A stretch of 64,000 bases of DNA from Chloroflexota bacterium (GTDB taxonomy: Bacteria > Chloroflexota > Limnocylindria > Limnocylindrales > CSP1-4), in the NCBI GenBank assembly GCA_040389445.1, contig JAZJZX010000004.1, positions 36,696 through 100,695 of the forward strand, read 5' to 3'. The notes below the pieces were generated by a model that ran no database searches, was not told where the DNA came from, and saw only the letters and a list, made by a program, of their open reading frames with translations. Positions 1-60,854 of this stretch are shown here, in pieces (the first letter of the stretch is position 1; the number at the start of each line of letters is the position of its first letter). The position numbers and the translations under genes are program-made.

Positions 1-804
1 CGCGACGCCACCGCCACCGAAGTCCTCGAACACAACGAAGTGGCGGACGAGATCGAGAAATCGGCGCTTCTCGAACACGCCTTCGAGTACGACCTGAAGC
101 TCACTCAGCGACGCCGGCGCGTCACCGTGCCCTGCGATCGTCCGCCACGGCTTGAACCACTCGCGGCCCGCGCCGATGACGCCAATCCGCGCTTGCGTCC
201 CGTCTGAGGCGACGAGTGCCGCGTTGTACGCGAAGAGCGTTGGGATCTGCGCCTGGTACGTCTCGAGTTGGTGGAACGCCGACCAGATCGTCGTGTTCTC
301 GTCGGCCGGATTCTTCAACTCGATGACCGCCAGTGGCAGGCCATTCAGGAAGACGATGACGTCCGGCCGGCGCGTGTGCTGGCCCTCGGCCAGGGTGAAC
401 TGGTTGACCGCAAGCCAGTCGTTGTTCTCCGGGTCGTCGAAGTCGATCACTCGCGCCTGCGCCCCTGCGATCGAGCCGTCCGGTCGGCGGTACTCCACGG
501 TCACGCCGTCGACGAGCATCCGGTGGAGTGCGTGGTTGCGATCGAGGAGCGTCGGGGCATCGGTCCGGGTCAGCTTCCGGTATACGTCGTCGAGCGCTTC
601 TGGCGGGATTGCGGGGGTGAGGCGTGAGAGCGCCTGGCGGAGCCGGCGCTCCAGGACGACATCGCGGTATCCGGGGTCGGTGCGCTCGGCAGCGGGTTCG
701 CCGAAGGCAATATCCGGCCCATGGAGGACCACGTACCCAAGCTCACCGAGCCATGCCAGGGCAGCATCCTCGACTACCGATTCGGTGAACCCAGCGCCGG
801 TCAC
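1..804 (-). CDS. hsdR: Type I restriction enzyme R subunit (HsdR), N-terminal part. The gene continues beyond the window start.
   Basis: The minus-strand translation from the GTG at 804 reads [29 protein letters not shown]...[19 protein letters not shown]...[32 protein letters not shown]...[10 protein letters not shown]. This is the conserved HsdR N-terminal nuclease/DNA-binding region (compare EcoR124I 'ILVNGLPLVQIELKK'). The frame is open to position 1, and the GTG start overlaps the upstream gene's stop (GTGA). Confidence 0.85.
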
Positions 805-1676
805 TCGGCAGTCTCCCGGGCGCCGTCGAAGGCACGAAGGGCGATCCGAACTGTCTCGACGGCCTCGTTGCGGAGACGTGCTCGCGCCTCAGGATCGCCC
901 GTCACCTCGAGAAACGCCGCGTACGCCGTGGGCGCGTCATTGCGAGCTTCGCTGAACCGGTCGCGAAGGAGTGCGAGCGCCTCGGCGGCAAGAGGATCCG
1001 CGACAACCTGGCTCACGGCCATTTCCCGACCAGAGCCCTCAGGTCCATCCGGGTGGTTCGCGAGGATCCAGATGATGTCGTACGCGTCCTTGTCGTGGTG
1101 TCGATCGAAGAAGGCCGAGATCTTCAGGATCACGAACGGCAGCAGACCGGCCACCCGCACTCTGGCAGTGGCCACGCCGCCGCCGTCGAGCCTCTCGGCA
1201 GCGATCTCCACGAGCTTGTAGTCCAGGCTCACGAGATGGGCTCCATGGACATTGAACGCCTGGAAGCGCGACCCCGACCCAGACCGAGGTTTGAAGCTAA
1301 CACCCGGTTCGACCTTGTCCGTGTCGCAGATGAATTCGAGGATCAGGCTGACGCCGTCGGCCTCCTTGCGCCATCGGAAGTCCGGGTCGTCCACGAGCGG
1401 AGCCTGGCGGAACCCGGCATCCAGGAGGTTCCGCGCCAGCGTCTCGTACGATTTGGAGGTCGGGTCGTCCACCATGAGAATCACGGCAAGGTCGACGTCT
1501 CGGGATCCCACGTGAGCCGGGGCCTCATCGCTGGCGCGACCGTACAGGTACCGGGGCACGAGCCCACCCACAAGATAGAGCCGCCGTCCCCAGAAGCCGG
1601 CGTTCCCGATGACCGTGACGAGCATCCGCTCGCACAGGTCGGTAATGGTCGGGTCGTAGTCCCCCGCGCTGGCCAT
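801..1676 (-). CDS. abiEii: AbiEii/AbiGii-family nucleotidyltransferase, a type IV toxin-antitoxin / abortive-infection toxin-like protein.
   Basis: 291 aa. It has a GG...GSRDVDLAV nucleotidyltransferase motif and the C-terminal K[19 protein letters not shown] signature ((R/K)DhYDh) typical of PF08843/DUF1814. It follows the putative AbiEi gene with a 2-nt spacer, and its stop overlaps the hsdR GTG start. Confidence 0.6.
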
Positions 1677-1678
1677 CG

Positions 1679-2761
1679 TCAGATCCCCAGAACCGACTCG
1701 CGGAAGAACTGCGCCTGCTCCTTGCCACGGCGCGGGTCCCGGAGGGAGTCAAGGTAGATCCGCGTGTCCGCGGCAAGCCAGATCCCGCCCACCACGCGGC
1801 GGAACCGCAGCTCCGCGTCATCCGCACCCTGGACGATCACGAGGTTGGAGCCCTCATCCGTCTGGCGAGCCTCCAGAGCGTGCAGCGCATCGCTCGCCGA
1901 GATGCCGGCGGTCACGCGAACCTGGGTGACCGGAACCGAGGTGAGTGCGGGAGCCAGGATCGCCGCGGCGGCGATCCCCGTGATCGCGTGCGGGATCCCG
2001 GCCCCAACCAGCCGCTCGGAGAGCAGCGCAGCGGTTCGGGCGCCGGGTCGGGTAAGCACGAACGCCGCCGTGCGCCGAGCGCCCCGCTCCTTCTCCTCTT
2101 CGGACCAGAGGTCAAGAAGCGCCCCGGGGTTTGCTATCCGGCGCACCTTGCGGGGGCCGGTTCCCTCGGCGGCCAGAATGGCCGCAGTCTCCAGGCGGGC
2201 GAGCACTCGATGGGCCAGCCCGCTGGACACGCCGGCCTCAGCGGCAATGTCCGCCACGCGCCACGAACGATCCCGATCGAGGAGGAGCGCCTGCGCAATG
2301 AGTCCCGCCTTGCCGGCCAGGCGCGCCTTCACGTGCTCCCGATCGACGATCACTGCGGCGGCGCCGAACGATCCGGTGCGGACGAAGACGCCCGGAAGGC
2401 GGATGGAGGCGTTCCCAAGCCCATCCAGGTACGCGACCCCGTTCGCTTCGAGGATCTGCCGCGCACCTTCGCTCGTGTGTTCAGCGACGAGGATGAAGTC
2501 GCGGCCCTTTGGCGTTCGACGAGCCAGTGCCACGATCGCGTGGGCATTCGCCGCATCTACGCGCCGCTTCGTCTCGAGGACGATCGGGCGAGGCCGGCCC
2601 TCGATACTAATCTCCGCATCTGGCCGAGTTGCCGCGTCGAAACCCGGCTGCGCCCTGATGGCGCTCAGCGCCCACGCTTCGAGAGGGGCGGCAATCTTCA
2701 CTGGAAGTTGGTTCTTCACTGCAGCAGTGAAGATACCTGTTGGAGTGAATATGTCAACCAC
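1679..2761 (-). CDS. abiEi: Putative AbiEi-like antitoxin / transcriptional regulator with an internal HTH, partner of the AbiEii-like gene.
   Basis: 360 aa with a GTG start at 2761. It contains a helix-turn-helix (SWRVADIAAEAGVSSGLAHRVLARLE), and its stop is 2 nt from the AbiEii start. The gene pairing and size match AbiE systems. The 5' ~60 nt are markedly AT-richer than the surroundings. The family assignment rests on context plus weak sequence features. Confidence 0.45.
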   Translation of the reverse strand: MVDIFTPTGIFTAAVKNQLPVKIAAPLEAWALSAIRAQPGFDAATRPDAEISIEGRPRPIVLETKRRVDAANAHAIVALARRTPKGRDFILVAEHTSEGARQILEANGVAYLDGLGNASIRLPGVFVRTGSFGAAAVIVDREHVKARLAGKAGLIAQALLLDRDRSWRVADIAAEAGVSSGLAHRVLARLETAAILAAEGTGPRKVRRIANPGALLDLWSEEEKERGARRTAAFVLTRPGARTAALLSERLVGAGIPHAITGIAAAAILAPALTSVPVTQVRVTAGISASDALHALEARQTDEGSNLVIVQGADDAELRFRRVVGGIWLAADTRIYLDSLRDPRRGKEQAQFFRESVLGI

Positions 2762-2963
2762 TGTCGGCAGGTCGCCAGCGGCTCTCGATCCGCTTGACTG
2801 CCTGGACCGACTCGTCGAAGTCCTGCTCGACGGGCGACGGAAGCGACGCGAGATGGGCGGAGGAGCACTCGGATTCGGACTCGGCCCACGCCACCGCGAC
2901 TTCGTGCGAGACCATGCCGGCTTGTCCCGCAGACCCTTCGAGGGCCGTGGCGCGCGCGCAGGC

Positions 2964-4799
2964 TCATCGCCGCAGAACTCTCACCCGGACCGGTCCCCGC
3001 TCCTCGAACCGCCCTACGAAGTCCGAGTCATCGGCGATGAATCCCCCCAGGTCGTAAACGAGGAACAGGGCGCTTCGCCCCCGATCCGCGTACTTCGGGA
3101 TGTCGGCGAGCATCTCATCAGTCACTTTCCGCACGTCCGACTTCATGCGAACGAGCTTCGCCTCGACGAACAGGTCCGGCTCGTCGGCGGCGTCCCCCTG
3201 CGTCGATCCGCTGAAGTCTGGTCTCGTTCCGACCTGGCCGAAGCTGACGGTCGGGAACTCGCGGTCGAGGTTCATCTTCGCTGCGGTCTGAGCGACGTCG
3301 ATCTGCCTCTGGAGCTCGTCCTCGTTGGATGGCTGGTGGCCAGCGAAGCCTTTCCGGATGGCCGGCGTCACGACCTCGGCGATCCGGTCAGCGAGTCGTT
3401 CCCACGGCTCTCGGCGGTGCTCAAGCTCGCCAATCCTTCTGAGAAGGCCCCCCGTCGGCAGCTTGCCACGTACATAGTCGGGGTGGTTTCGCGTCCAGAC
3501 GGCCTGGTACGCCCCATCGATTTGCTCCGCGTGGCGCTGGACAAGCGCGTAGATCCTTGTGATCTCGTCATTCACATTGCCGGCGACTTGGGCGGCCCGC
3601 CACACGTCCTGCTCCCGCGCGAGATCATCCGGGGTCATGTCGAGCGTGGTCCACGCGAAGCGCAGGTACTGCTCCGCATACATGGCCGGCTCGCCATCTT
3701 TCAACGGGTCCCGAAACAAGTCCACCTGATGCTGCGGACGCTCGATGTCGTCATCCCACCCCGCCGCGATGCCGGCAAAGCGACGGTCGACGCACTGCGA
3801 GCAGGTGCCACAGTGGGGCTGGATCGGCCGCCGGAACATGCCACGCGCGCATGAGACCGTGCGGTGAGCCAAGGCTTCCCCGCCCCGAGTGATGGCTTCC
3901 CTAATCACGTCGGCCTTGGTGCTGTCGGCAAAGGGCGTTTCGACGGTGACCTCGATACCGAGGGCAACGAGGAGCTGGCGATAGAGCCAGAGCGTCTTGG
4001 GGTGCGTCGTCCGCGAGCGCATGGCTCCGACCGACTGGGCCGACTGGGCGAGGTTCAGGCTTGTCACCCCATTTTCCGGCACGATCAACCGATTCAGCCC
4101 GGCCTGCATCGCCACGGCGACGCCAAGGCCGAGGTAGAGCACGCCTCTCGACCGCTGGGTGTAGTCCTGGGCATCGCCCGCTCCGGGACCCCGGACGGTC
4201 TGGAGCGTGGGATTCGGAAAACGCCAGCCCGCCTTCGTCGTTCTGAGAACTTCGAGCACTCCATCCTTGAAGCTCCGGCCCGTGTTCGTCGTCCAGTGGC
4301 TCGCGAGGATCGGCCGTTCGCCGTCGTCGACGAGACGAAGCGCGCCAGCGAGCGAGTCAAGGCCGCCCGAGAAGAGCGAGACGCACGTTGGATCATCGCC
4401 GCCGGCCGCAACAAGATCGAGCTTGAGTTGCTCGTCGGCCTGGCCCCGGCGGAATTCGAATGTCCAGGAGTCGTCTGTCGCGAACTCGAGCACTGCCGTC
4501 AACTCGTCGCGGACCGCGTTCCACCGGTCTGGCTCGTGAACGGGCACGTGCAGCGCGAGCTCCCGGCGCCAGTTCTTGGCGAGCGGATCCCGCTTCCGCG
4601 CCCGCGGCACAGCTCCGTCTGCGAGGAAAACGTAGGCGGCGACAGTCAACAGGTCCCGGACCAGGGGCAGGAGTGTCCTCGCGGCGGACTTCTCGACGCC
4701 GGTGACGTTGAGCACGACCTGGCGGTTTGGCGGTGATGGATCGAGCGTCACGGAGGCGCCCGACACGGTAGGCGGTGGTCCGCAGTGGATGACCGTCAT
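2964..4799 (-). CDS. QueC-like PP-loop ATPase (7-cyano-7-deazaguanine-synthase-like fold) with a unique N-terminal extension and a C-terminal PD-(D/E)xK restriction-endonuclease-like domain. Candidate defense effector or modifier.
   Basis: 611 aa. It has the PP-loop VSLFSGGLDSLAGA (SGGxDS) and a QueC-type zinc site C-x12-C-x2-C-x2-C (SCARGMFRRPIQPHCGTCSQCVDRR). The C-terminus carries ...TRPDFSGS...DEPDLFVEAKLVR, giving a PD...EAK nuclease motif. Its ATG overlaps the stop of the upstream 254-aa gene (ATGA). Confidence 0.6.
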   Translation of the reverse strand: MTVIHCGPPPTVSGASVTLDPSPPNRQVVLNVTGVEKSAARTLLPLVRDLLTVAAYVFLADGAVPRARKRDPLAKNWRRELALHVPVHEPDRWNAVRDELTAVLEFATDDSWTFEFRRGQADEQLKLDLVAAGGDDPTCVSLFSGGLDSLAGALRLVDDGERPILASHWTTNTGRSFKDGVLEVLRTTKAGWRFPNPTLQTVRGPGAGDAQDYTQRSRGVLYLGLGVAVAMQAGLNRLIVPENGVTSLNLAQSAQSVGAMRSRTTHPKTLWLYRQLLVALGIEVTVETPFADSTKADVIREAITRGGEALAHRTVSCARGMFRRPIQPHCGTCSQCVDRRFAGIAAGWDDDIERPQHQVDLFRDPLKDGEPAMYAEQYLRFAWTTLDMTPDDLAREQDVWRAAQVAGNVNDEITRIYALVQRHAEQIDGAYQAVWTRNHPDYVRGKLPTGGLLRRIGELEHRREPWERLADRIAEVVTPAIRKGFAGHQPSNEDELQRQIDVAQTAAKMNLDREFPTVSFGQVGTRPDFSGSTQGDAADEPDLFVEAKLVRMKSDVRKVTDEMLADIPKYADRGRSALFLVYDLGGFIADDSDFVGRFEERGPVRVRVLRR

Positions 4800-5560
4800 G
4801 AGGCGCGCGTGATCTCGTCCGCGATCTTCCGCATCGCCACCGCGGCCACGCCTTCAGTCCGATCCAGGCCACCGAGCCATTGACGCTTCGAGTACCAGGC
4901 GCCGGCGAAGTCCTCGACGATTCGAGCCGCCTCGGATGCGTAGCGATCGACGCCATCGGTGAACAACTGAATCTCTGCCTCGGATCGGAGCCGTCCGTCG
5001 CCCCCGAGGAGATTGGCGGCCTCGTGGTCGGTGAAATACCGGAGCGAGCGGGAGAGGAGCCGGGCAAAGAACAGGTGGGCGAGCTGCGCGAAGCCTCGCT
5101 CGGTTGAGAACGAGTGGTAAGCCTGCCGCGCATCGTCCAGCCCGGAGAGGAAGAGGCTGCCGGTCTGCGACGTGATGGTCCGGGTCAGCGACTCCTGGAG
5201 AGCGCCGAGAGCGAACTCCGTGAAGATCGTTCGCTGACTCGTCGGTCCGAACCGGTTCTCGGCCTCGCGCAGGACGTTCCCGAGAAGACCCAGGGCATCT
5301 TCGTTGCCCGTCACGGTGAAGCCGTAGCCGCGCAGGGCTTCGGCGAAGTCATCGCGACGTGACGCATCGGCCAGGAGCGCCATCACCCGGAGGCTCTCCA
5401 CGACGCCTGGGTCTTCGCCAGCCGCACGATAAGCCTTCTCGGCTGCGCCAACGACAGCGCGCGCTACGGTTCCGACGTCCACGTCAGGATCGTCCATGAG
5501 CCGGACGACGTGCGACCAGCGTCGCGTCTTAGGGAGCTCGCCGAGGCGAATGTGCCCCAT
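4796..5560 (-). CDS. Hypothetical all-alpha protein of ~254 aa, translationally coupled between hsdS and the QueC-like gene. Possible QatB-like partner or substrate.
   Basis: The ORF has protein-like composition. Its ATG at 5560 shares one base with the hsdS stop (TGATG), and its stop overlaps the QueC-like ATG (ATGA). No recognisable catalytic motif. After removal of the initiator Met the N-terminus is M-G-H... Confidence 0.5.
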   Translation of the reverse strand: MGHIRLGELPKTRRWSHVVRLMDDPDVDVGTVARAVVGAAEKAYRAAGEDPGVVESLRVMALLADASRRDDFAEALRGYGFTVTGNEDALGLLGNVLREAENRFGPTSQRTIFTEFALGALQESLTRTITSQTGSLFLSGLDDARQAYHSFSTERGFAQLAHLFFARLLSRSLRYFTDHEAANLLGGDGRLRSEAEIQLFTDGVDRYASEAARIVEDFAGAWYSKRQWLGGLDRTEGVAAVAMRKIADEITRAS

Positions 5561-6896
5561 CAACCGACCCCGTGGCTTTCGCGCCGCGACCCGAGTGTGC
5601 GCACGGAGCGTTCCTCTTGACTTCGGGAGATGTGCAGTACGCCCGAGATCAGGTCTGGTAGCAGCGCGTCGCGCAGGGCGGCGAGAGTTCGGGATTGCGC
5701 AGTCATCATCGACGCCTGTTCGAGAAGACGGTGGACCACGGTTCCAAAGAGCCGGGCAACTTCGGACGACGGGGACACGGCGAGGAAATAGGACAGGGAC
5801 TCTGCTGGCACCCGCTGTCGACCGCTGGAGCCCGTCATGCTCTGGATCGCGAACTCCCGAAACTCATCGCTACGCGCCAAGCAGTAGGCGTACTCGGTCG
5901 GAAGCGGGGGCTCTGCGCGGAGGACGATGTACTCGGTTGAGCCCCAGCCAACCTGGCCAGGCTCGAGGAAGTCAACGTATGCAGTCTTGCCGTTCTCGAG
6001 ACACGGCGTGATCCGGGCGACCAACGTATCCCCGTTCTGGAAACGCATTCCCGAACCGAAGGGGCGATCAACCACAGCGTCTGGCGAGTGGCCGCGAGTC
6101 GGCATGTTGGCCATGTCCAGGTATGGCGCGACAACGCCCTTGCGCAATGAGCGCGGCGGGTTGACCTTCACGACCGCAGGCAGCGGCGCCAATCGCCAGC
6201 CCGTCGGGATCTCCCCAAGCTCCGAGTCCTCGAAGGAACCCGGGAACAAATCGGCGAGGTGGGGTGGGAGGCCGGGGTCGCGGCCTTCGGACTTGGCGCG
6301 GACGGGGTCGAAGTCGACGAACCAGGACTTGAAGAGGGCCCGCGCGATCGCCTCGAGGGCCTCGCTCATCCGGCGGTTCAGCTCGATCTTGTCGTCCAGC
6401 GTGCCGAGGATGTGGGCGATGCGGCGCTGCACCCTATCAGGCGGTAATCCGAACCGGAAGCCAAGTAGCCGTTCCTTCGACAGGTTCATGATCGCCGTGC
6501 CTACTGCGTACGCTTCGATGCGCTCACGGAAGTCGGCCGATTGCAGGACGTAGCCGAGGTATGCCGGGTCAATCCGGTCAGGTTTTGGCCGGATTGCGGC
6601 ACAGAATGCTCCGACGCACCCGTCCCACGTTTGGCGCAATGGGGCGAGACGACCAACAGCCTTGCGGCTACCACTCGACATCGCAATCACGACGTCGAAA
6701 CGGCGCAAGTGCTGTGCTTCTCGGACGAGACGCGTCGGGACGTAGATGACATTGGCGAGATCCAGAGTGTGATCCCCGATGTTCGTGGCGCGCAGCAGTG
6801 GTACCGCGCCCGTGGACTCAGTTGCGAGCTCGCTGGGACGGAAGTTGACGCCACGCACAAGATCGGCAACTTCGCCGAGCTGAACCTCACCCTCAG
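5560..6896 (-). CDS. hsdS: Type I restriction-modification specificity subunit (HsdS).
   Basis: The sequence [24 protein letters not shown]...[16 protein letters not shown]...[26 protein letters not shown]... shows two target-recognition domains plus conserved HsdS repeats. The likely GTG start at 6896 overlaps the hsdM stop (GTGA). The ORF track's longer 542-aa version has a low-complexity N-terminus that overlaps hsdM and is probably not translated. Confidence 0.85.
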
Positions 6897-8443
6897 TCAC
6901 CGAAGCCGAGCTCCCGCAGGTTCGCATCGATGAGCGCGTCGAGCCGCTGGCCCTCGGCGACCTGTTCGCGTAAGGTCGCGCCAAGCCTCGCCATCTTCTC
7001 GTCGAACGGCTCGGCGTCCTCCTCGGTGGCGGCAGCGCCGACGTAGCGGCCGGGGGTAAGCACGTGACCGTGCTTGCGGATCTCGTCGAGCGGGACGGAC
7101 CGGCAGAAGCCGGGCACGTCGGCGTACTCGCCGGCGCCCTCGTCGCCGCGCCAGGCGTGGTAGGTACCGGCGATCGTCGCCACGTCATCGTCGGTCAGTT
7201 CGCGGTGCGTTCGATCGACGAGCGAGCCCATCTTCCGGGCGTCGATGAAGAGCGTCTCGCCGCGGCGGTCGCGGAAGCGGCCGTTGCGCCGGTCGCGGGC
7301 GAGGAACCAGAGGCAGACCGGGATCTGGGTCGAGTAGAAGAGCTGGCCCGGCAGGGCGACCATGCAGTCGACGAGGTCAGCCTCGATGATCGCCTTGCGG
7401 ATCTCGCCCTCGCCCGACTGGTTGGTCGACATCGAGCCGTTGGCGAGGACGAAGCCGGCGATTCCGGTCGGCGCGAGATGGTGGATGAAGTGCTGGACCC
7501 AGGCGAAGTTCGCGTTGCCCGCCGGCGGCTCGCCGTACACCCAGCGCTTGTCGCCCTTCAGGAGTTCGCCCCGCCAGTCGCTGTCGTTGAAGGGCGGATT
7601 GGCCAGGACCCAGTCGGCCTTGAGGTCCGGGTGGCGGTCGTTGTGGAAGGTGTCGCCGTGGGCGATCTGGGCGTCGATGCCGCGGATCGCGAGGTTCATC
7701 GCGGCCAGCCGCCAGGTCGTGTAGTTGGACTCCTGGCCGTAGATGCTGATGTCGCCGAGCTTGCCCGCGTGGGCCTCGATGAACTTCTCGCTGCTCACGA
7801 ACATCCCACCCGAGCCGCAGCACGGGTCATACACGCGGCCCTTGTAGGGCGCCAGCATCTCGACGAGGATCCGGACGACGTGCGACGGCGTGTAGAACTG
7901 GCCGCCCTTCTTGCCCTCGGCGCTCGCGAACTGGGCGAGGAAGTACTCATAGACCCGACCGAGCGTGTCCTTCGCCCGGTCGGCGGGGGCTCCCAGCGCG
8001 ATGTCGGAGACGAGGTTGATGAGCTGGCCGAGGCGCGCCTTGTCGAGGCCGGGCCGGGCGTAGTCCTTGGGCAGCACGCCCTTGAGGGTCGGGTTGTCCC
8101 GCTCGATGGCGGCCATCGCGTCGTCGACGAGGGTGCCGATCGTGGGCTGGGGAGCGCTCGCCTTCAGGTGCGTCCAGCGGGCTTCCCTGGGGACCCAGAA
8201 GATGCTGACGGCCCGGTACTCGTCGGGGTCCTCGGGGTCGGCGCCAGCGGCGCGGTCGGCCTCGAGTTCGGCGTGCTTCGCCTCGAAGGCGTCGCTGATG
8301 TACTTCAGGAAGATCAGGCCCAGGACGACGTGCTTGTACTCGGCCGCGTCCATGTTGTTGCGCAGGGCGTCGGCGGTCTGCCAGAGGCGCGCCTCGAAGC
8401 TAACGGGAGCGGCGGTGTCCGGGCGGCCGGAGCCCCTTGCCAT
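6893..8443 (-). CDS. hsdM: Type I restriction-modification N6-adenine DNA methyltransferase (HsdM).
   Basis: 516 aa. The N-terminus reads [39 protein letters not shown], it carries the NPPFN catalytic motif, and it has a SAM-binding fold. Its ATG shares one base with the upstream DUF262 gene's stop (TGATG). Confidence 0.95.
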
Positions 8444-57043: not shown

Positions 57044-58125
57044 ATCCCACCGCAACCCTTCGGGCGACCGGACAGAGCCTGTGGCTCGACAACATCACCC
57101 TTGATCTGCTCGCCAGCGGGACGCTCGAGCGCTACATCCGCGAGCTTTCCGTGACGGGCCTCACCTCGAACCCCACCATCTACGACAAGGCGATCGAGGG
57201 GACCGACGCCTACGACGGCCAGATCATCGCGGGTCAGGCCTCGGGCCTTGCCCCGGAGGACCTCTTCTTCGAGCTCGCACTCGACGACCTGCGGCGGGCG
57301 GCCGATGCCTTCCGGCCCGTCTTCGACCGGTCCGGCGGAGTCGATGGCTGGGTGTCCCTCGAGGTCTCGCCCCTGCTTGCGCACGACATGGCGGCAACCG
57401 TCGGCGAGGCCATCCGTCTCCATGCCCGGGCCGACCGCCCCAACCTCTTCATCAAGATCCCCGGTACGCAGGCGGGCCTGCTCGCCGTCGAAGAGGCGAT
57501 CCTCGCCGGCGTTCCCGTCAACGTGACCCTCCTGTTCACGGCCGGACACTACCTGGCCGCGGCCGAGGCGTACCTCCGGGGCATCGAGCGGCGCATCGAG
57601 GCCGGCCGTGACCCGAATGTCGCGTCCGTCGCGTCGGTCTTCATCAGCCGCTGGGACTCGGCGGTGGCCGGCATGGTTCCGGCGAACCTGCAGACGACCC
57701 TCGGTCTGGCCGTGGGTCGGGCGATCTACGCCGCCTATCGTCGGCTGCTCGCCTCCGATCGGTGGCAGCGGCTCGAGAACGAGGGCGCGCGTGCACAGCG
57801 GCTCCTCTTTGCGAGCACGGGGACCAAGGATCCGAAGGCCTCGGATACCCTGTACATCGCCGGGCTCGCAGCACCTCATACCGTCAATACGATGCCCGAA
57901 GGCACCCTCCTGGCCTTCGCGGATCACGGGGCCGTCGGGACGGTACTGCCGGCCGACGGCGGCGACGCCGGGCAGGTTCTCGCGGCCTTCGCTGCCGCCG
58001 GCGTCGACATCGAGGAGCTGGGCCGACGTCTTCAGGGTGATGGGGCGAGCGCGTTCGTCCAGTCCTGGGAACAGCTGCTCGCCTGCATCGAAGAGAAGAG
58101 CGCCATCGTGGGCCAGTCCCGATGA
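57040..58125 (+). CDS. tal: Transaldolase (actinobacterial long form).
   Basis: The sequence [42 protein letters not shown]...[10 protein letters not shown] matches transaldolase. Confidence 0.9.
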
Positions 58126-60854
58126 GCACACGGCAGGGTCCGGCCATCGCCGGGCTCCGTGCGCGACCGGCGTGGGCTGCATTGGGCAGGCATCACGCCG
58201 AGATCTCGGAGCTCCATCTCCGTGACCTCTTCGCGGCGGACCCCGAGCGCGGGCGGCGGCTGGTCGTCGAGGCGGCCGGGCTGTACCTCGACTACTCCAA
58301 GAACCGCGTCACCGACGAGACACTGGCCCTGCTCGTCCGGCTGGCCGAGGAGTCCGGGCTGCGCGACCGAATCGAGGCGATGTTCGGGGGCGCGCGGATC
58401 AACGTCACCGAGGATCGAGCGGTCCTCCACACCGCCCTTCGGGCCCCGCGCGAGGCAACCGTCCTCGTCAATGGCCAGAACGTCGTCCCCGGCGTCCATG
58501 CGGTCCTCGACCGGATGGCAGCCTTCGCCGACGGTGTGCGCAACGGGACATGGCTGGGTCACTCCGGTCGACCGATCAGGAATGTCGTGAACATCGGAAT
58601 CGGCGGGTCGGACCTCGGTCCGGTGATGGCCTACCGGGCGCTCCGGGCGTACGCGCAGCGAGACCTGACGTTCCGCTTCGTATCCAATGTCGACGGCACC
58701 GACTTCGTCGAGGCGACCCGCGACCTCCGGCCGGACGAGACCCTGTTCATCGTCTCGTCGAAGACCTTCACCACCGTCGAGACCATGCGCAACGCGGCGG
58801 ACGCGAGGCGCTGGCTCCTGGCCGAGCTGGGCGATGAGGTTGCCGTGGCCCGCCACTTCGCAGCCGTCTCAACGAACGCCGCCGCCGTATCGGAGTTCGG
58901 CATCGACACCGCCAACATGTTCGGCTTCTGGGACTGGGTCGGCGGCCGATACTCGATGGAGTCGGCCATCGGGCTGTCGACCATGATCGCGATCGGCCCC
59001 GAGCACTTCCGGGCCATGCTGGCGGGCTTCCATGAGATGGACGAACACTTCCGGACGGCGCCCTTCGATGCCAACCTGCCGGTCATCCTCGGGTTGCTCA
59101 CCGTCTGGTACGCGAACTTCTTCGGCTCGCAGACGGTGGCCGTTCTCCCCTACGACCAGTACCTGGAACGCTTCCCGGCCTACCTCCAGCAACTCACCAT
59201 GGAGTCGAACGGCAAGAGCGTCACCCTCGACGGCACGCGGGTGGATTACGAGACCGGCCCCATCTACTGGGGCGAGCCGGGCACCAACGGGCAGCACTCG
59301 TTCTACCAGCTCATCCATCAGGGGACGCGTCTCATTCCGGCCGACTTCATCGGCTTCTGGCAGACGAACAATCCCCTCGGCGACCATCACGACCTGCTGA
59401 CGGCAAACCTCTTCGCGCAGTCCGAGGCGCTGGCCTTCGGCAAGACCGTCGACCAGGTCCGCGCGGAGGGAACCCCCGACCGGCTGGTCCCGCATCGCGT
59501 CTTCGAGGGCAATCGTCCCTCGAACACCATCATCGCGGAGCGTCTGACACCCGCGACGCTTGGCCGGCTGGTGGCGCTCTACGAGCACAGCGTGTTCACG
59601 CAGGGAACCATCTGGAACCTCGACTCATTCGATCAGTGGGGGGTCGAGCTGGGCAAGGTCCTGGCCACGCGTGTGGCTGCCGAGCTGACGGCCACCGACG
59701 AGACCGCCGTGGCCCACGACTCCTCGACGAACGCCTTGATCGCTCGCTACCGCAGCATTCACCGGGCCGGTAGCCGGCTCGCATCAAGGGTTCCGGGCGG
59801 TGTGCCCGAGCCACGAAGGAGCACGCACATGCAACTCGGAGTGATCGGACTTGGCCGGATGGGCGGCAACATCGTCAGGCGCCTCGAGCGGGCCGGCCAC
59901 ACCACGGCCGGCTACGCGCGACGCCCCGAGGTCGTCGCGGCCCTGACCGATTCAGGCATGCGCGGTGCGACATCGCTGGCCGACCTCGTGGCGGGCCTGG
60001 CGAAACCGCGCGCCATCTGGCTGATGGTCCCGGCGGCGGCCGTCGATTCGACCCTCGAGGCGCTTGTGCCGCTCCTGGACGCGGGCGACGTCATCATCGA
60101 CGGCGGCAACTCCTACTACCGCGACGACATCCGGCGCTCGAAGGAGCTCGCGACGCGCGGCCTCCAGTACCTCGATATCGGCACGAGCGGCGGTGTCTGG
60201 GGTCTCGAGCGCGGCTTCAGCCTGATGATCGGCGGTGACACGGCCACGGTCCAGCGGCTTGATCCGATCTTCGCTGCCCTCGCCCCGGGAGCAGAGGCGG
60301 CGCCGCCGACGGCCGGCCGCGATCGTCGCGGCGGCACCGCCGAGGAAGGCTACCTGCACTGCGGGCCGAGCGGCGCCGGCCACTTCGTCAAGATGGTTCA
60401 CAACGGCATCGAATACGGGTTGATGGCCGCCTATGCAGAGGGGCTCAACATCCTCCGTCACGCCAACGCCGGGGCCGGCCAGCGCTCGATTGATGCCGAG
60501 ACGACCCCCCTCCGCGAGCCCGAGCTCTACCGCTACGAGTTCGACCTCGCCGACGTGGCCGAGGTCTGGCGGCGTGGCAGCGTGGTCGCGTCCTGGCTCC
60601 TCGACCTCACCGCGAGTGCCCTCGCCAAGAGCCCGCAGCTGGACGGCTTCTCGGGCCGGGTGTCGGACTCGGGCGAAGGCCGCTGGACGATTGTTGCCGC
60701 AGTCGACGAAGGCGTGCCCGCGCCGGTCCTCACCACGGCCCTCTTTGCGCGCTTCAGCTCGCGTGGCGAAGCGGACTTCGCCGACCGGATGCTCTCGGCG
60801 ATGCGTCTGGAGTTTGGCGGACACCTCGAGAAGGGAGGCGATCCGGCTTCCTGA
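58122..60854 (+). CDS. pgi: Glucose-6-phosphate isomerase continuing in frame, without a stop, into a short-form 6-phosphogluconate dehydrogenase-like (Gnd/YqeC-type) domain. Apparently a Pgi-Gnd fusion.
   Basis: The Pgi signatures include [22 protein letters not shown] and WGVELGK. After a ~19-aa linker comes [19 protein letters not shown] (a Rossmann 6PGDH N-terminus), followed by 6PGDH C-terminal motifs. There is no in-frame stop between the two parts. The SD sequence AAGGAG lies 7 nt upstream of the internal ATG at 59827. Confidence 0.8.

Follow-up and report, generated by a model that had tools for sequence, protein, structure and literature searches.

The 64,000-nucleotide stretch of a Chloroflexota bacterium genome analyzed here (assembly GCA_040389445.1, contig JAZJZX010000004.1, positions 36,696 to 100,695; hereinafter, the window) contains a gene for a 611-residue protein in which a ligase related to QatC, a component of QatABCD (reportedly an anti-phage system, described by Gao et al. 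in 2020), is fused to a C-terminal PD-(D/E)xK domain. The gene is immediately preceded by, and overlaps with, a gene for a small helical protein, and we consider it reasonably probable, as regards the mechanistic picture as a whole, that the two comprise an anti-phage module that resembles QatBC and in which a fused DNase takes the place of QatD. The C-terminal domain, with its approximately 120 residues, is very probably a genuine member of the PD-(D/E)xK family. The comparisons reported here directly support the identities of the domains, the integrity of the catalytic residues in each of them, the conserved pairing of the two genes and the lack of QatA, QatB and QatD.

The sequence-only reading of this DNA, made without database searches, had placed a nuclease-like domain at positions 2964-3450, that is, residues 451-611 and the stop codon, on the strength of an RPD tripeptide followed at a distance by E-A-K, in the manner of motifs II and III of the restriction endonuclease fold. 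In the translation of the open reading frame (ORF) 2964..4799, this motif is present near the C-terminus as quoted, with a spacer of exactly 17 residues, FSGSTQGDAADEPDLFV, between R526-P527-D528 and E546-A547-K548. The bare D...ExK pattern is within chance expectation: in composition-preserving shuffles of the whole protein, 'D-x10-30-[DE]xK' turns up in 85% and 'PD-x10-30-[DE]xK' in 17% (10% when the C-terminal 171 aa are taken alone); only the pattern 'PD...ExK+hydrophobic' is rare (about 2%). Given how common the bare motif is in shuffles, that reading was right to present its nuclease call with caution; the significance comes from conservation and homology.

A full-length search yielded about 170 homologues, among which those of 605-632 aa span 95% to 28% identity. 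Many proteins in this size range, with 28-36% identity, bear precomputed PF06508 and PF18742 domains, and one of the relatives, WP_133299926.1 from Larkinella punicea, is named 'PD-(D/E)XK nuclease domain-containing protein' in RefSeq. The C-terminal 211 aa alone retrieved 9 close fragments, and the full-length and exhaustive representative searches were needed to go further. An exhaustive HMMER search with residues 464-611 produced 237 cluster representatives; among the representatives listed, most consist of ~600-630 aa and have the nuclease domain at the C-terminus, and the QueC segment is also present in 5 of the 10 shorter ones that were scanned with Pfam. In the set of 240 distinct domain sequences compiled for conservation analysis (median identity to the window sequence 33%, minimum 26%), the D and the E-x-K are near-invariant down to the most distant members, as are three further acidic residues (E493, E514 and D583; the counts are given in the table), and the pattern of catalytic residues is likewise kept in 46 full-length homologues.

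Comparison with the Pfam family REase_DpnII-MboI (PF18742) gave 18.6 bits (E 0.0015) for the full protein and 21.5 bits (E 1.9e-4) for the isolated domain. The assignment of the window domain to this family rests on transitive homology because its own score is sub-threshold and those of its homologues pass: all 33 trimmed homologous domains match PF18742 at E<=0.01 (the best one at 9.3e-19), and relatives score up to 42 bits. A single-sequence search of PDB with the C-terminal domain returned spurious matches to gamma-glutamyltransferase and dehydroquinase (E>0.06), and the domain profile weakly matched EcbAgaN (PDB 23wq, E 0.33), with the conserved motifs aligned. HHalign against the EcbAgaN fragment alone gave a probability of 74%. 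What makes this link convincing, the single PDB match being weak, is the bAgaN family profile that was built from a 7-sequence alignment comprising EcbAgaN and six plasmid homologues of its nuclease-domain fragment. Our domain profile A3 aligned to this family with 97.8% probability (E 1.3e-12, 108 columns), keeping the nE / xE / xD / ExK / [YW]D motifs in register, and control comparisons with the QatB, QatD, partner and QatC core profiles gave 0.2-1.8%. The long-B Argonaute-associated nuclease bAgaN is a Mn2+-dependent DNase with a restriction endonuclease-like C-terminal domain and a conserved D-EVK, and acts as an abortive-infection effector (PMC10620215). Conservation, the PF18742 matches of the homologues and the bAgaN alignment thus back the motif II/III arrangement that had been read from the motif, and the predicted nuclease identity draws on family membership, profile-profile homology and conservation. 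That D...ExK is a chance motif in a generic non-nuclease alpha/beta domain appears extremely improbable in view of the PF18742 matches (33/33), the HHalign probability (97.8% vs under 2% for the controls) and the near-invariance of six acidic or basic residues.

Structure prediction for residues 441-611 with AlphaFold2 (AF2), using a 33-sequence alignment, produced a model with a predicted local distance difference test score (pLDDT) of 89 and a predicted template modelling score of 0.82. In this model, the core helix runs from E493 to E514, with a short break within, and is followed by a short strand (520-522), D528 in a coil, and a low-confidence loop (~529-540) that corresponds to a clade-specific insertion of ~9-12 residues between D and ExK. 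The strand 543-550, which holds E546 and K548, is succeeded by a helix (553-572), a strand (576-583) with D583 at its end, a helix (591-599) and a final strand (604-610). Read along the chain, these elements give alpha-beta-(loop with D528)-beta(ExK)-alpha-beta-alpha-beta, which appears compatible with the alpha-beta-beta-beta-alpha-beta core that the sequence-only reading had expected of a fold prediction, although the second strand of the core is uncalled. A Foldseek search of PDB with the domain model gave no significant match. Altogether, the modelling and fold searches are weakly supportive, in that they do not contradict the assignment but would be insufficient to establish it alone. Of the two outcomes that the sequence-only reading had named as refuting its nuclease call, an unrelated predicted fold and non-conserved D/E/K positions, neither emerged.

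The N-terminal part of the protein is clearly homologous to QatC, judging from profile and structure searches. The PADLOC QatC profile matches it at 3.4e-57 (profile positions 60-368 of 453), the PDB search identified the solved QatC structures 9vlk_A (5e-37) and 9zee_B (1e-32), with about 30% identity, and the NCBIfam QatC model NF041925 scores 209.6 bits (E 6.9e-62, profile positions 13-325 of 398). The equivalog cutoff of the latter model (280 bits) is not reached, and the C-terminal part of the profile remains unmatched; hence residues ~44-356 are best described as a clear QatC homologue but no QatC equivalog. The similarity to canonical QueC is far more limited: TIGR00364 gives 26.7 bits, its cutoff being 150.3, with the zinc-binding C-terminal segment alone aligned, and the Pfam QueC match is confined to residues 281-340. 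The motifs listed for QatC in a survey of the QueC family, namely D..R..WxR, DxWxxxF, RxRxxxY, TTHP and P..TK (PMC13329287), are represented in the fusion protein by D61/R66/W77/R79, D110/W112/F116, R216/R218/Y222, T264-T265-H266-P267 and T294-K295, respectively. These residues, the SGGLDS loop and the four zinc-binding cysteines are mostly invariant in 46 full-length homologues. Thus, the label 'QueC-like' previously attached to this protein holds insofar as it is a PP-loop enzyme of the QueC family, but the QatC profiles and structures place it in the QatC-like defence branch rather than with QueC proper, and the name '7-cyano-7-deazaguanine synthase' carried by its relatives is a misannotation.

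The QatC profile alignments end at about residue 350-356. The linker (residues 357-489), which the QatC profiles leave unmatched, occupies the position of the C-terminal helices by which canonical QatC binds QatB, and no counterpart of these helices is detectable in the fusion protein with the QatC profiles. In the AF2 model, the linker forms helices at model positions 12-17 and 25-44, which reach to about residue 484 and precede the core helix of the nuclease domain. The fusion noted previously on this QueC-family protein is real, with the nuclease domain (residues 490-611) joined to the QatC-like core (44-356).

The remodelled active site of the core bears on another interpretation, namely, that the fusion protein is a modification-dependent (type IV-like) restriction enzyme whose QueC-like domain reads 7-deazaguanine-type bases and directs the nuclease to them. 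QueC-family folds bind 7-deazaguanine derivatives, and phages evade restriction with such bases (cited in PMC13639016). In the fusion protein, however, S262 and T264 replace the Tyr/Asp pair that recognizes 7-carboxy-7-deazaguanine (CDG), as is typical of QatC, the ATP-pyrophosphatase loop is intact, and the obligate partner bears a glycine motif at its N-terminus. Because of the QatC-type site, the intact loop and the glycine-motif partner, modification of a protein is favoured over the reading of DNA bases, and we regard the type IV-like scenario as highly unlikely.

The partner gene is located directly upstream, with its stop codon overlapping the start of the fusion gene by 4 nt (ATGA). 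We found 60 homologues of its product, most of them exactly 254 aa long, with the N-terminal motif MGHxRLGxLPxxxxW, in which G2, H3, R5, P10 and W15 are invariant (32 sequences). In the AF2 model of the partner (pLDDT 84.5), the fold is entirely helical, comprising ten helices, and the extreme N-terminus is disordered. QatB, for its part, binds QatC 1:1; its N-terminal MGTS motif, Gly2 and the nearby P..W segment are essential, and QatB and QatC alone defend against some phages (PMC13279940). None of the methods applied showed homology between the partner and QatB: the QatB models (NCBIfam NF041924) are unmatched and HHalign gives 34%. By analogy of position and architecture, nevertheless, the partner is a close counterpart of QatB and the presumed substrate or regulator of the ligase. 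The suggestion that the fusion creates an autonomous effector is not borne out, since translational coupling of the fusion gene to a conserved partner gene makes this a two-gene system.

The pairing was examined in 81 loci, one of them on a metagenomic contig and the other 80 from genomes sampled once per species. A member of the partner family is encoded immediately upstream, on the same strand, in 77 of these, including all 26 loci in which the ligase bears the nuclease domain. The nuclease-bearing loci come from Chloroflexota, Nitrospirota, Planctomycetota, Cyanobacteria, Gemmatimonadota, Deinococcota, Bacteroidota, Verrucomicrobiota and Ignavibacteriota as well as delta-proteobacteria, a Defluviitaleaceae metagenome-assembled genome and others. 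Hidden Markov models (HMMs) of QatA, QatB and QatD, built from eight annotated canonical plasmid qatABCD operons, recover the respective proteins in 8/8 canonical loci, and with these HMMs no QatA, QatB or QatD was found in the window or, over a span of about 6-8 kb, at the related loci L001-L081 and L090-L094, the sole exception being a distant KAP match on the opposite strand in L038.

Two relatives appear to be disrupted: in L004 (5854-7761), a stop codon lies between the ligase core and the nuclease domain and the gene looks damaged, and in L005 (3569-7590), about 1.3 kb separates a partner-adjacent N-terminal fragment of the ligase from the remaining gene; these are possibly pseudogenes or insertions. 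As a separate observation, several bona fide qatABCD operons, those on actinobacterial plasmids included (L083 4063-4845, L085, L088, L089), contain a QatB gene whose sole annotation is 'hypothetical', and the one checked, L083 QatB, has no match to the NCBIfam QatB model. QatB sequences are evidently very divergent, and current models appear to under-detect them.

Most of the QatC-like relatives with an MGH-partner lack the nuclease domain (P0050-P0128; L015, L019, L022-L081). Their C-termini instead contain an OmpR-type winged helix-turn-helix (wHTH; PF00486, Trans_reg_C), sigma-70 region 4 (PF08281, Sigma70_r4) or 200-300 aa without a Pfam match, so that the recognisable modules of the sister proteins are predicted to be DNA-directed. 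The C-terminal module might then mainly bind DNA, because the paralogues carry DNA-binding domains at the same position. Under this scenario, the PD-(D/E)xK domain would bind or sense the DNA of a phage, its ends or some structure in it, and would thereby switch on the ligase and the partner, which would carry the actual output, with any cleavage being secondary; such an arrangement would suit both the sister proteins, which share the partner family, and the sufficiency of QatB and QatC for defence against some phages without a nuclease (PMC13279940). Yet the catalytic set is under strong purifying selection (K548 240/240, D528 239/240, E546 236/240, E493 240/240), which would be unexpected for pure binding, and bAgaN, the closest homologue to have been characterised, acts as an effector DNase that is active. 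We consider DNA sensing as the principal role to be rather unlikely, albeit the most serious of the alternatives.

The mechanism that we favour, with the fused nuclease as the effector, can be outlined as follows. Removal of the initiator methionine from the partner would expose Gly2. The ligase domain would bind the partner and, by analogy with QatB-QatC and CdnD-Cap9, would modify Gly2 with a nucleobase-like carboxylate in an ATP-dependent reaction. The fused domain would act as a metal-dependent DNase that degrades DNA during infection, in place of the TatD nuclease QatD, and whether it is active would depend on the state in which the complex of partner and ligase is found during infection. 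The parts of this outline that we infer are the reaction at Gly2, the cleavage of DNA, the direction in which regulation runs and the role in defence. Several observations weigh against it. The PF18742 score of the window domain (18.6-21.5 bits) is under the Pfam gathering score of 27, and in the model D528 lies in a coil before a low-confidence 12-residue insertion, with no clear second strand called by DSSP. Nuclease activity is a prediction for every member of the fusion subfamily. Paralogous QatC-like proteins bear a DNA-binding wHTH or sigma-4 domain at the nuclease position. Furthermore, the QatC reaction itself could not be reconstituted in published work (PMC13279940; PMC13376578; PMC13639016).

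In the window, the two genes are part of a same-strand overlapping array that includes GmrSD/DUF262, hsdM, hsdS, partner and fusion. The GmrSD/DUF262 protein likely serves this island in type IV restriction. The TGATG overlap between the hsdS stop codon and the partner start codon, the tight packing of hsdM, hsdS, partner and fusion on one strand, the failure to find an HsdR-like ORF in the 64-kb window, and the retention of the hsdS-partner-fusion order in a 95%-identical metagenomic relative (L095) could all be taken to mean that partner and fusion, at this locus, provide restriction for the type I hsdM-hsdS genes next to them. However, homologues of 29-74% identity are found away from hsdMS: those of 62-74% identity are located alone between housekeeping genes, by Tn7-like tniB/tniQ (L090 2920-9836) or by Shedu (L096 2354-6739, with SduA_C and an Ea47-like gene), and a 29%-identical homologue lies beside an OLD-family ATPase-TOPRIM nuclease and an Mrr-type nuclease (L001 1-7875). 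Because the distant homologues are not beside hsdMS, the two-gene cassette is the mobile unit, with the hsdMS linkage being local island packing. We therefore rejected an HsdR substitute for the neighbouring hsdMS, which we deem very improbable.

Downstream of the fusion, after a gap of ~200 nt, the window encodes a winged-helix protein and an overlapping AbiEii-like nucleotidyltransferase, which, from their sequences, are a probable AbiE-type toxin-antitoxin or abortive-infection pair. The GC content is 0.64-0.67 over the first ~12 kb, where the defence genes are located, vs about 0.68-0.73 elsewhere in the window, and the lower-GC end is what one would expect of an island that entered a high-GC chromosome by horizontal transfer. 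Outside this end, the window encodes LigD, a histidine kinase, a Mur ligase and phosphoglucose isomerase, among others; no tRNA genes were found. A 910-aa ORF (58122-60854, plus strand) contains a complete phosphoglucose isomerase domain and the N-terminal part of a 6-phosphogluconate dehydrogenase; it could be a genuine fusion or else two genes that have been read as one. A 696-aa ORF (1764-3854, plus strand), which runs antisense to both the fusion gene and the next gene downstream, is low-complexity and rich in Ala, Arg and Ser; it was rejected as a gene, such content being typical of a high-GC shadow ORF.

Table. Features of the fusion gene, its product and the neighbouring genes in the window (residue numbers refer to the fusion protein)
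Feature	Position	Strand	Remarks
Fusion gene, QatC-like ligase with C-terminal PD-(D/E)xK domain	2964..4799	-	611 aa; stop codon 2964-2966
QatC-like PP-loop ATPase core, residues 44-356	3732..4670	-	QatC profile and structure matches
PP-loop SGGLDS, residues 144-149	4353-4370	-	
Cys4 zinc site C317/C330/C333/C336	3792-3851	-	
Helical linker/extension, residues 357-489	3333..3731	-	outside QatC profile alignments; AF2 helices
Predicted PD-(D/E)xK (REase_DpnII-MboI / bAgaN-like) nuclease domain, residues 490-611	2967..3332	-	PF18742, HHalign, AF2
E493, start of first core helix	3321..3323	-	240/240; aligned with conserved 'nE' of bAgaN
E514 (in REFP), acidic, before strand 1	3258..3260	-	E 238/240, D 2/240
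R526-P527-D528 codons	3216-3224	-	
D528, 'PD' aspartate (motif II)	3216..3218	-	239/240; aligned with D of bAgaN D-EVK
E546-A547-K548, (D/E)xK (motif III), strand 543-550	3156..3164	-	E546: E 236/240, D 4/240; K548: 240/240; aligned with bAgaN EVK
D583 (in VYD), acidic, end of strand 4	3051..3053	-	229/240; aligned with bAgaN W-D
Partner gene, 254 aa, all-helical	4796..5560	-	immediately upstream of fusion; start = ATG at 5560
hsdS (type I)	ends at 5560	-	stop overlaps partner start (TGATG)
hsdM (type I)	6893-8443	-	
GmrSD/DUF262 protein, 815 aa	8443-10890	-	Pfam GmrSD_N 2e-26; PADLOC HEC-05 2e-43; directly upstream of hsdM, abutting
360-aa winged-helix protein, then overlapping 291-aa AbiEii-like nucleotidyltransferase	801-2761	-	weak, Pfam AbiEii E 1e-3

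The fused architecture is already visible in automated annotation, in the form of the precomputed Pfam domains and one RefSeq name, and the window gene is one more member of an uncharacterised, widespread Qat-like subfamily. Our literature search found no paper on a QueC/QatC-nuclease fusion, its partner family or a two-gene system devoid of QatA and QatD, and the survey of the QueC family and the QatBC structure papers (PMC13329287; PMC13279940; PMC13376578; PMC13639016) make no mention of the fusion. Defence by QatB and QatC alone has been shown in published work, with the mechanism left unexplained (PMC13279940). Here, the minimal system combines a ligase fused to a recognisable, catalytically intact predicted DNase with one small partner, without QatA or QatD, so that the candidate effector is plain to see and one can test directly how modification of the partner is coupled to output. 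It follows as well that many database entries named '7-cyano-7-deazaguanine synthase' are probably defence proteins, and that there is a second family of partners for the QatC-like ligase, with no detectable relationship to QatB, along with swappable C-terminal modules. It is possible, although we hold this with less than even confidence, that the MGH-partner and the QatC-like ligase constitute a phylum-spanning minimal two-gene immune family, distinct from QatABCD, with interchangeable C-terminal DNA-directed outputs, in which modification of the partner's Gly2 directly gates the fused DNase. If such gating is confirmed, this would be the first protein-nucleobase conjugation enzyme physically fused to its effector.

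With respect to known systems, the fusion protein shares with canonical QueC the Rossmann-like PP-loop fold and the zinc-binding C-terminal cysteines, but the catalytic CDG-binding motifs of QueC are replaced by QatC-type motifs. Cap9 of type IV CBASS, an antiphage signalling system based on cyclic oligonucleotides, is also a QueC-family PP-loop enzyme and, acting on Gly2 of its partner, provides the mechanistic template for the reaction proposed here; however, Cap9 is minimal (~185 aa) and has retained the canonical residues for CDG binding, it acts with a CD-NTase partner that undergoes N-terminal deazaguanylation, and the effector of that system is separate and signal-activated, none of which applies to the fusion system. 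The C-terminal domain belongs to the sequence family REase_DpnII-MboI, with relatives over the threshold, but differs from typical members in its clade-specific insertion, and, unlike in the case of DpnII and MboI, nothing indicates GATC specificity or a cognate methylase. With bAgaN, it shares homology and the E / E / D / ExK / D motifs, at a sequence identity of about 12-15%; bAgaN is a separate protein under Argonaute control, an effector switched on by a partner sensor in the BPAN systems (PMC10620215), whereas the domain described here is joined to the ligase.

With QatABCD, the fusion system has in common the QatC homology, the SGGxDS PP-loop, the Cys4 zinc site and the motifs specific to QatC. 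It differs in that the KAP NTPase QatA and the TatD nuclease QatD are absent from the fusion loci, and in that a different helical linker and the PD-(D/E)xK domain take the place of the C-terminal helices with which QatC binds QatB. The partner resembles QatB in being an all-helical protein of ~250 aa, with an invariant Met-Gly and a downstream P...W, encoded by an upstream overlapping gene, but it has MGH instead of MGTS and nearly no disordered tail, in contrast to the long, disordered tail of QatB. Finally, like the qatABCD genes, the genes of the fusion system are located in defence islands.

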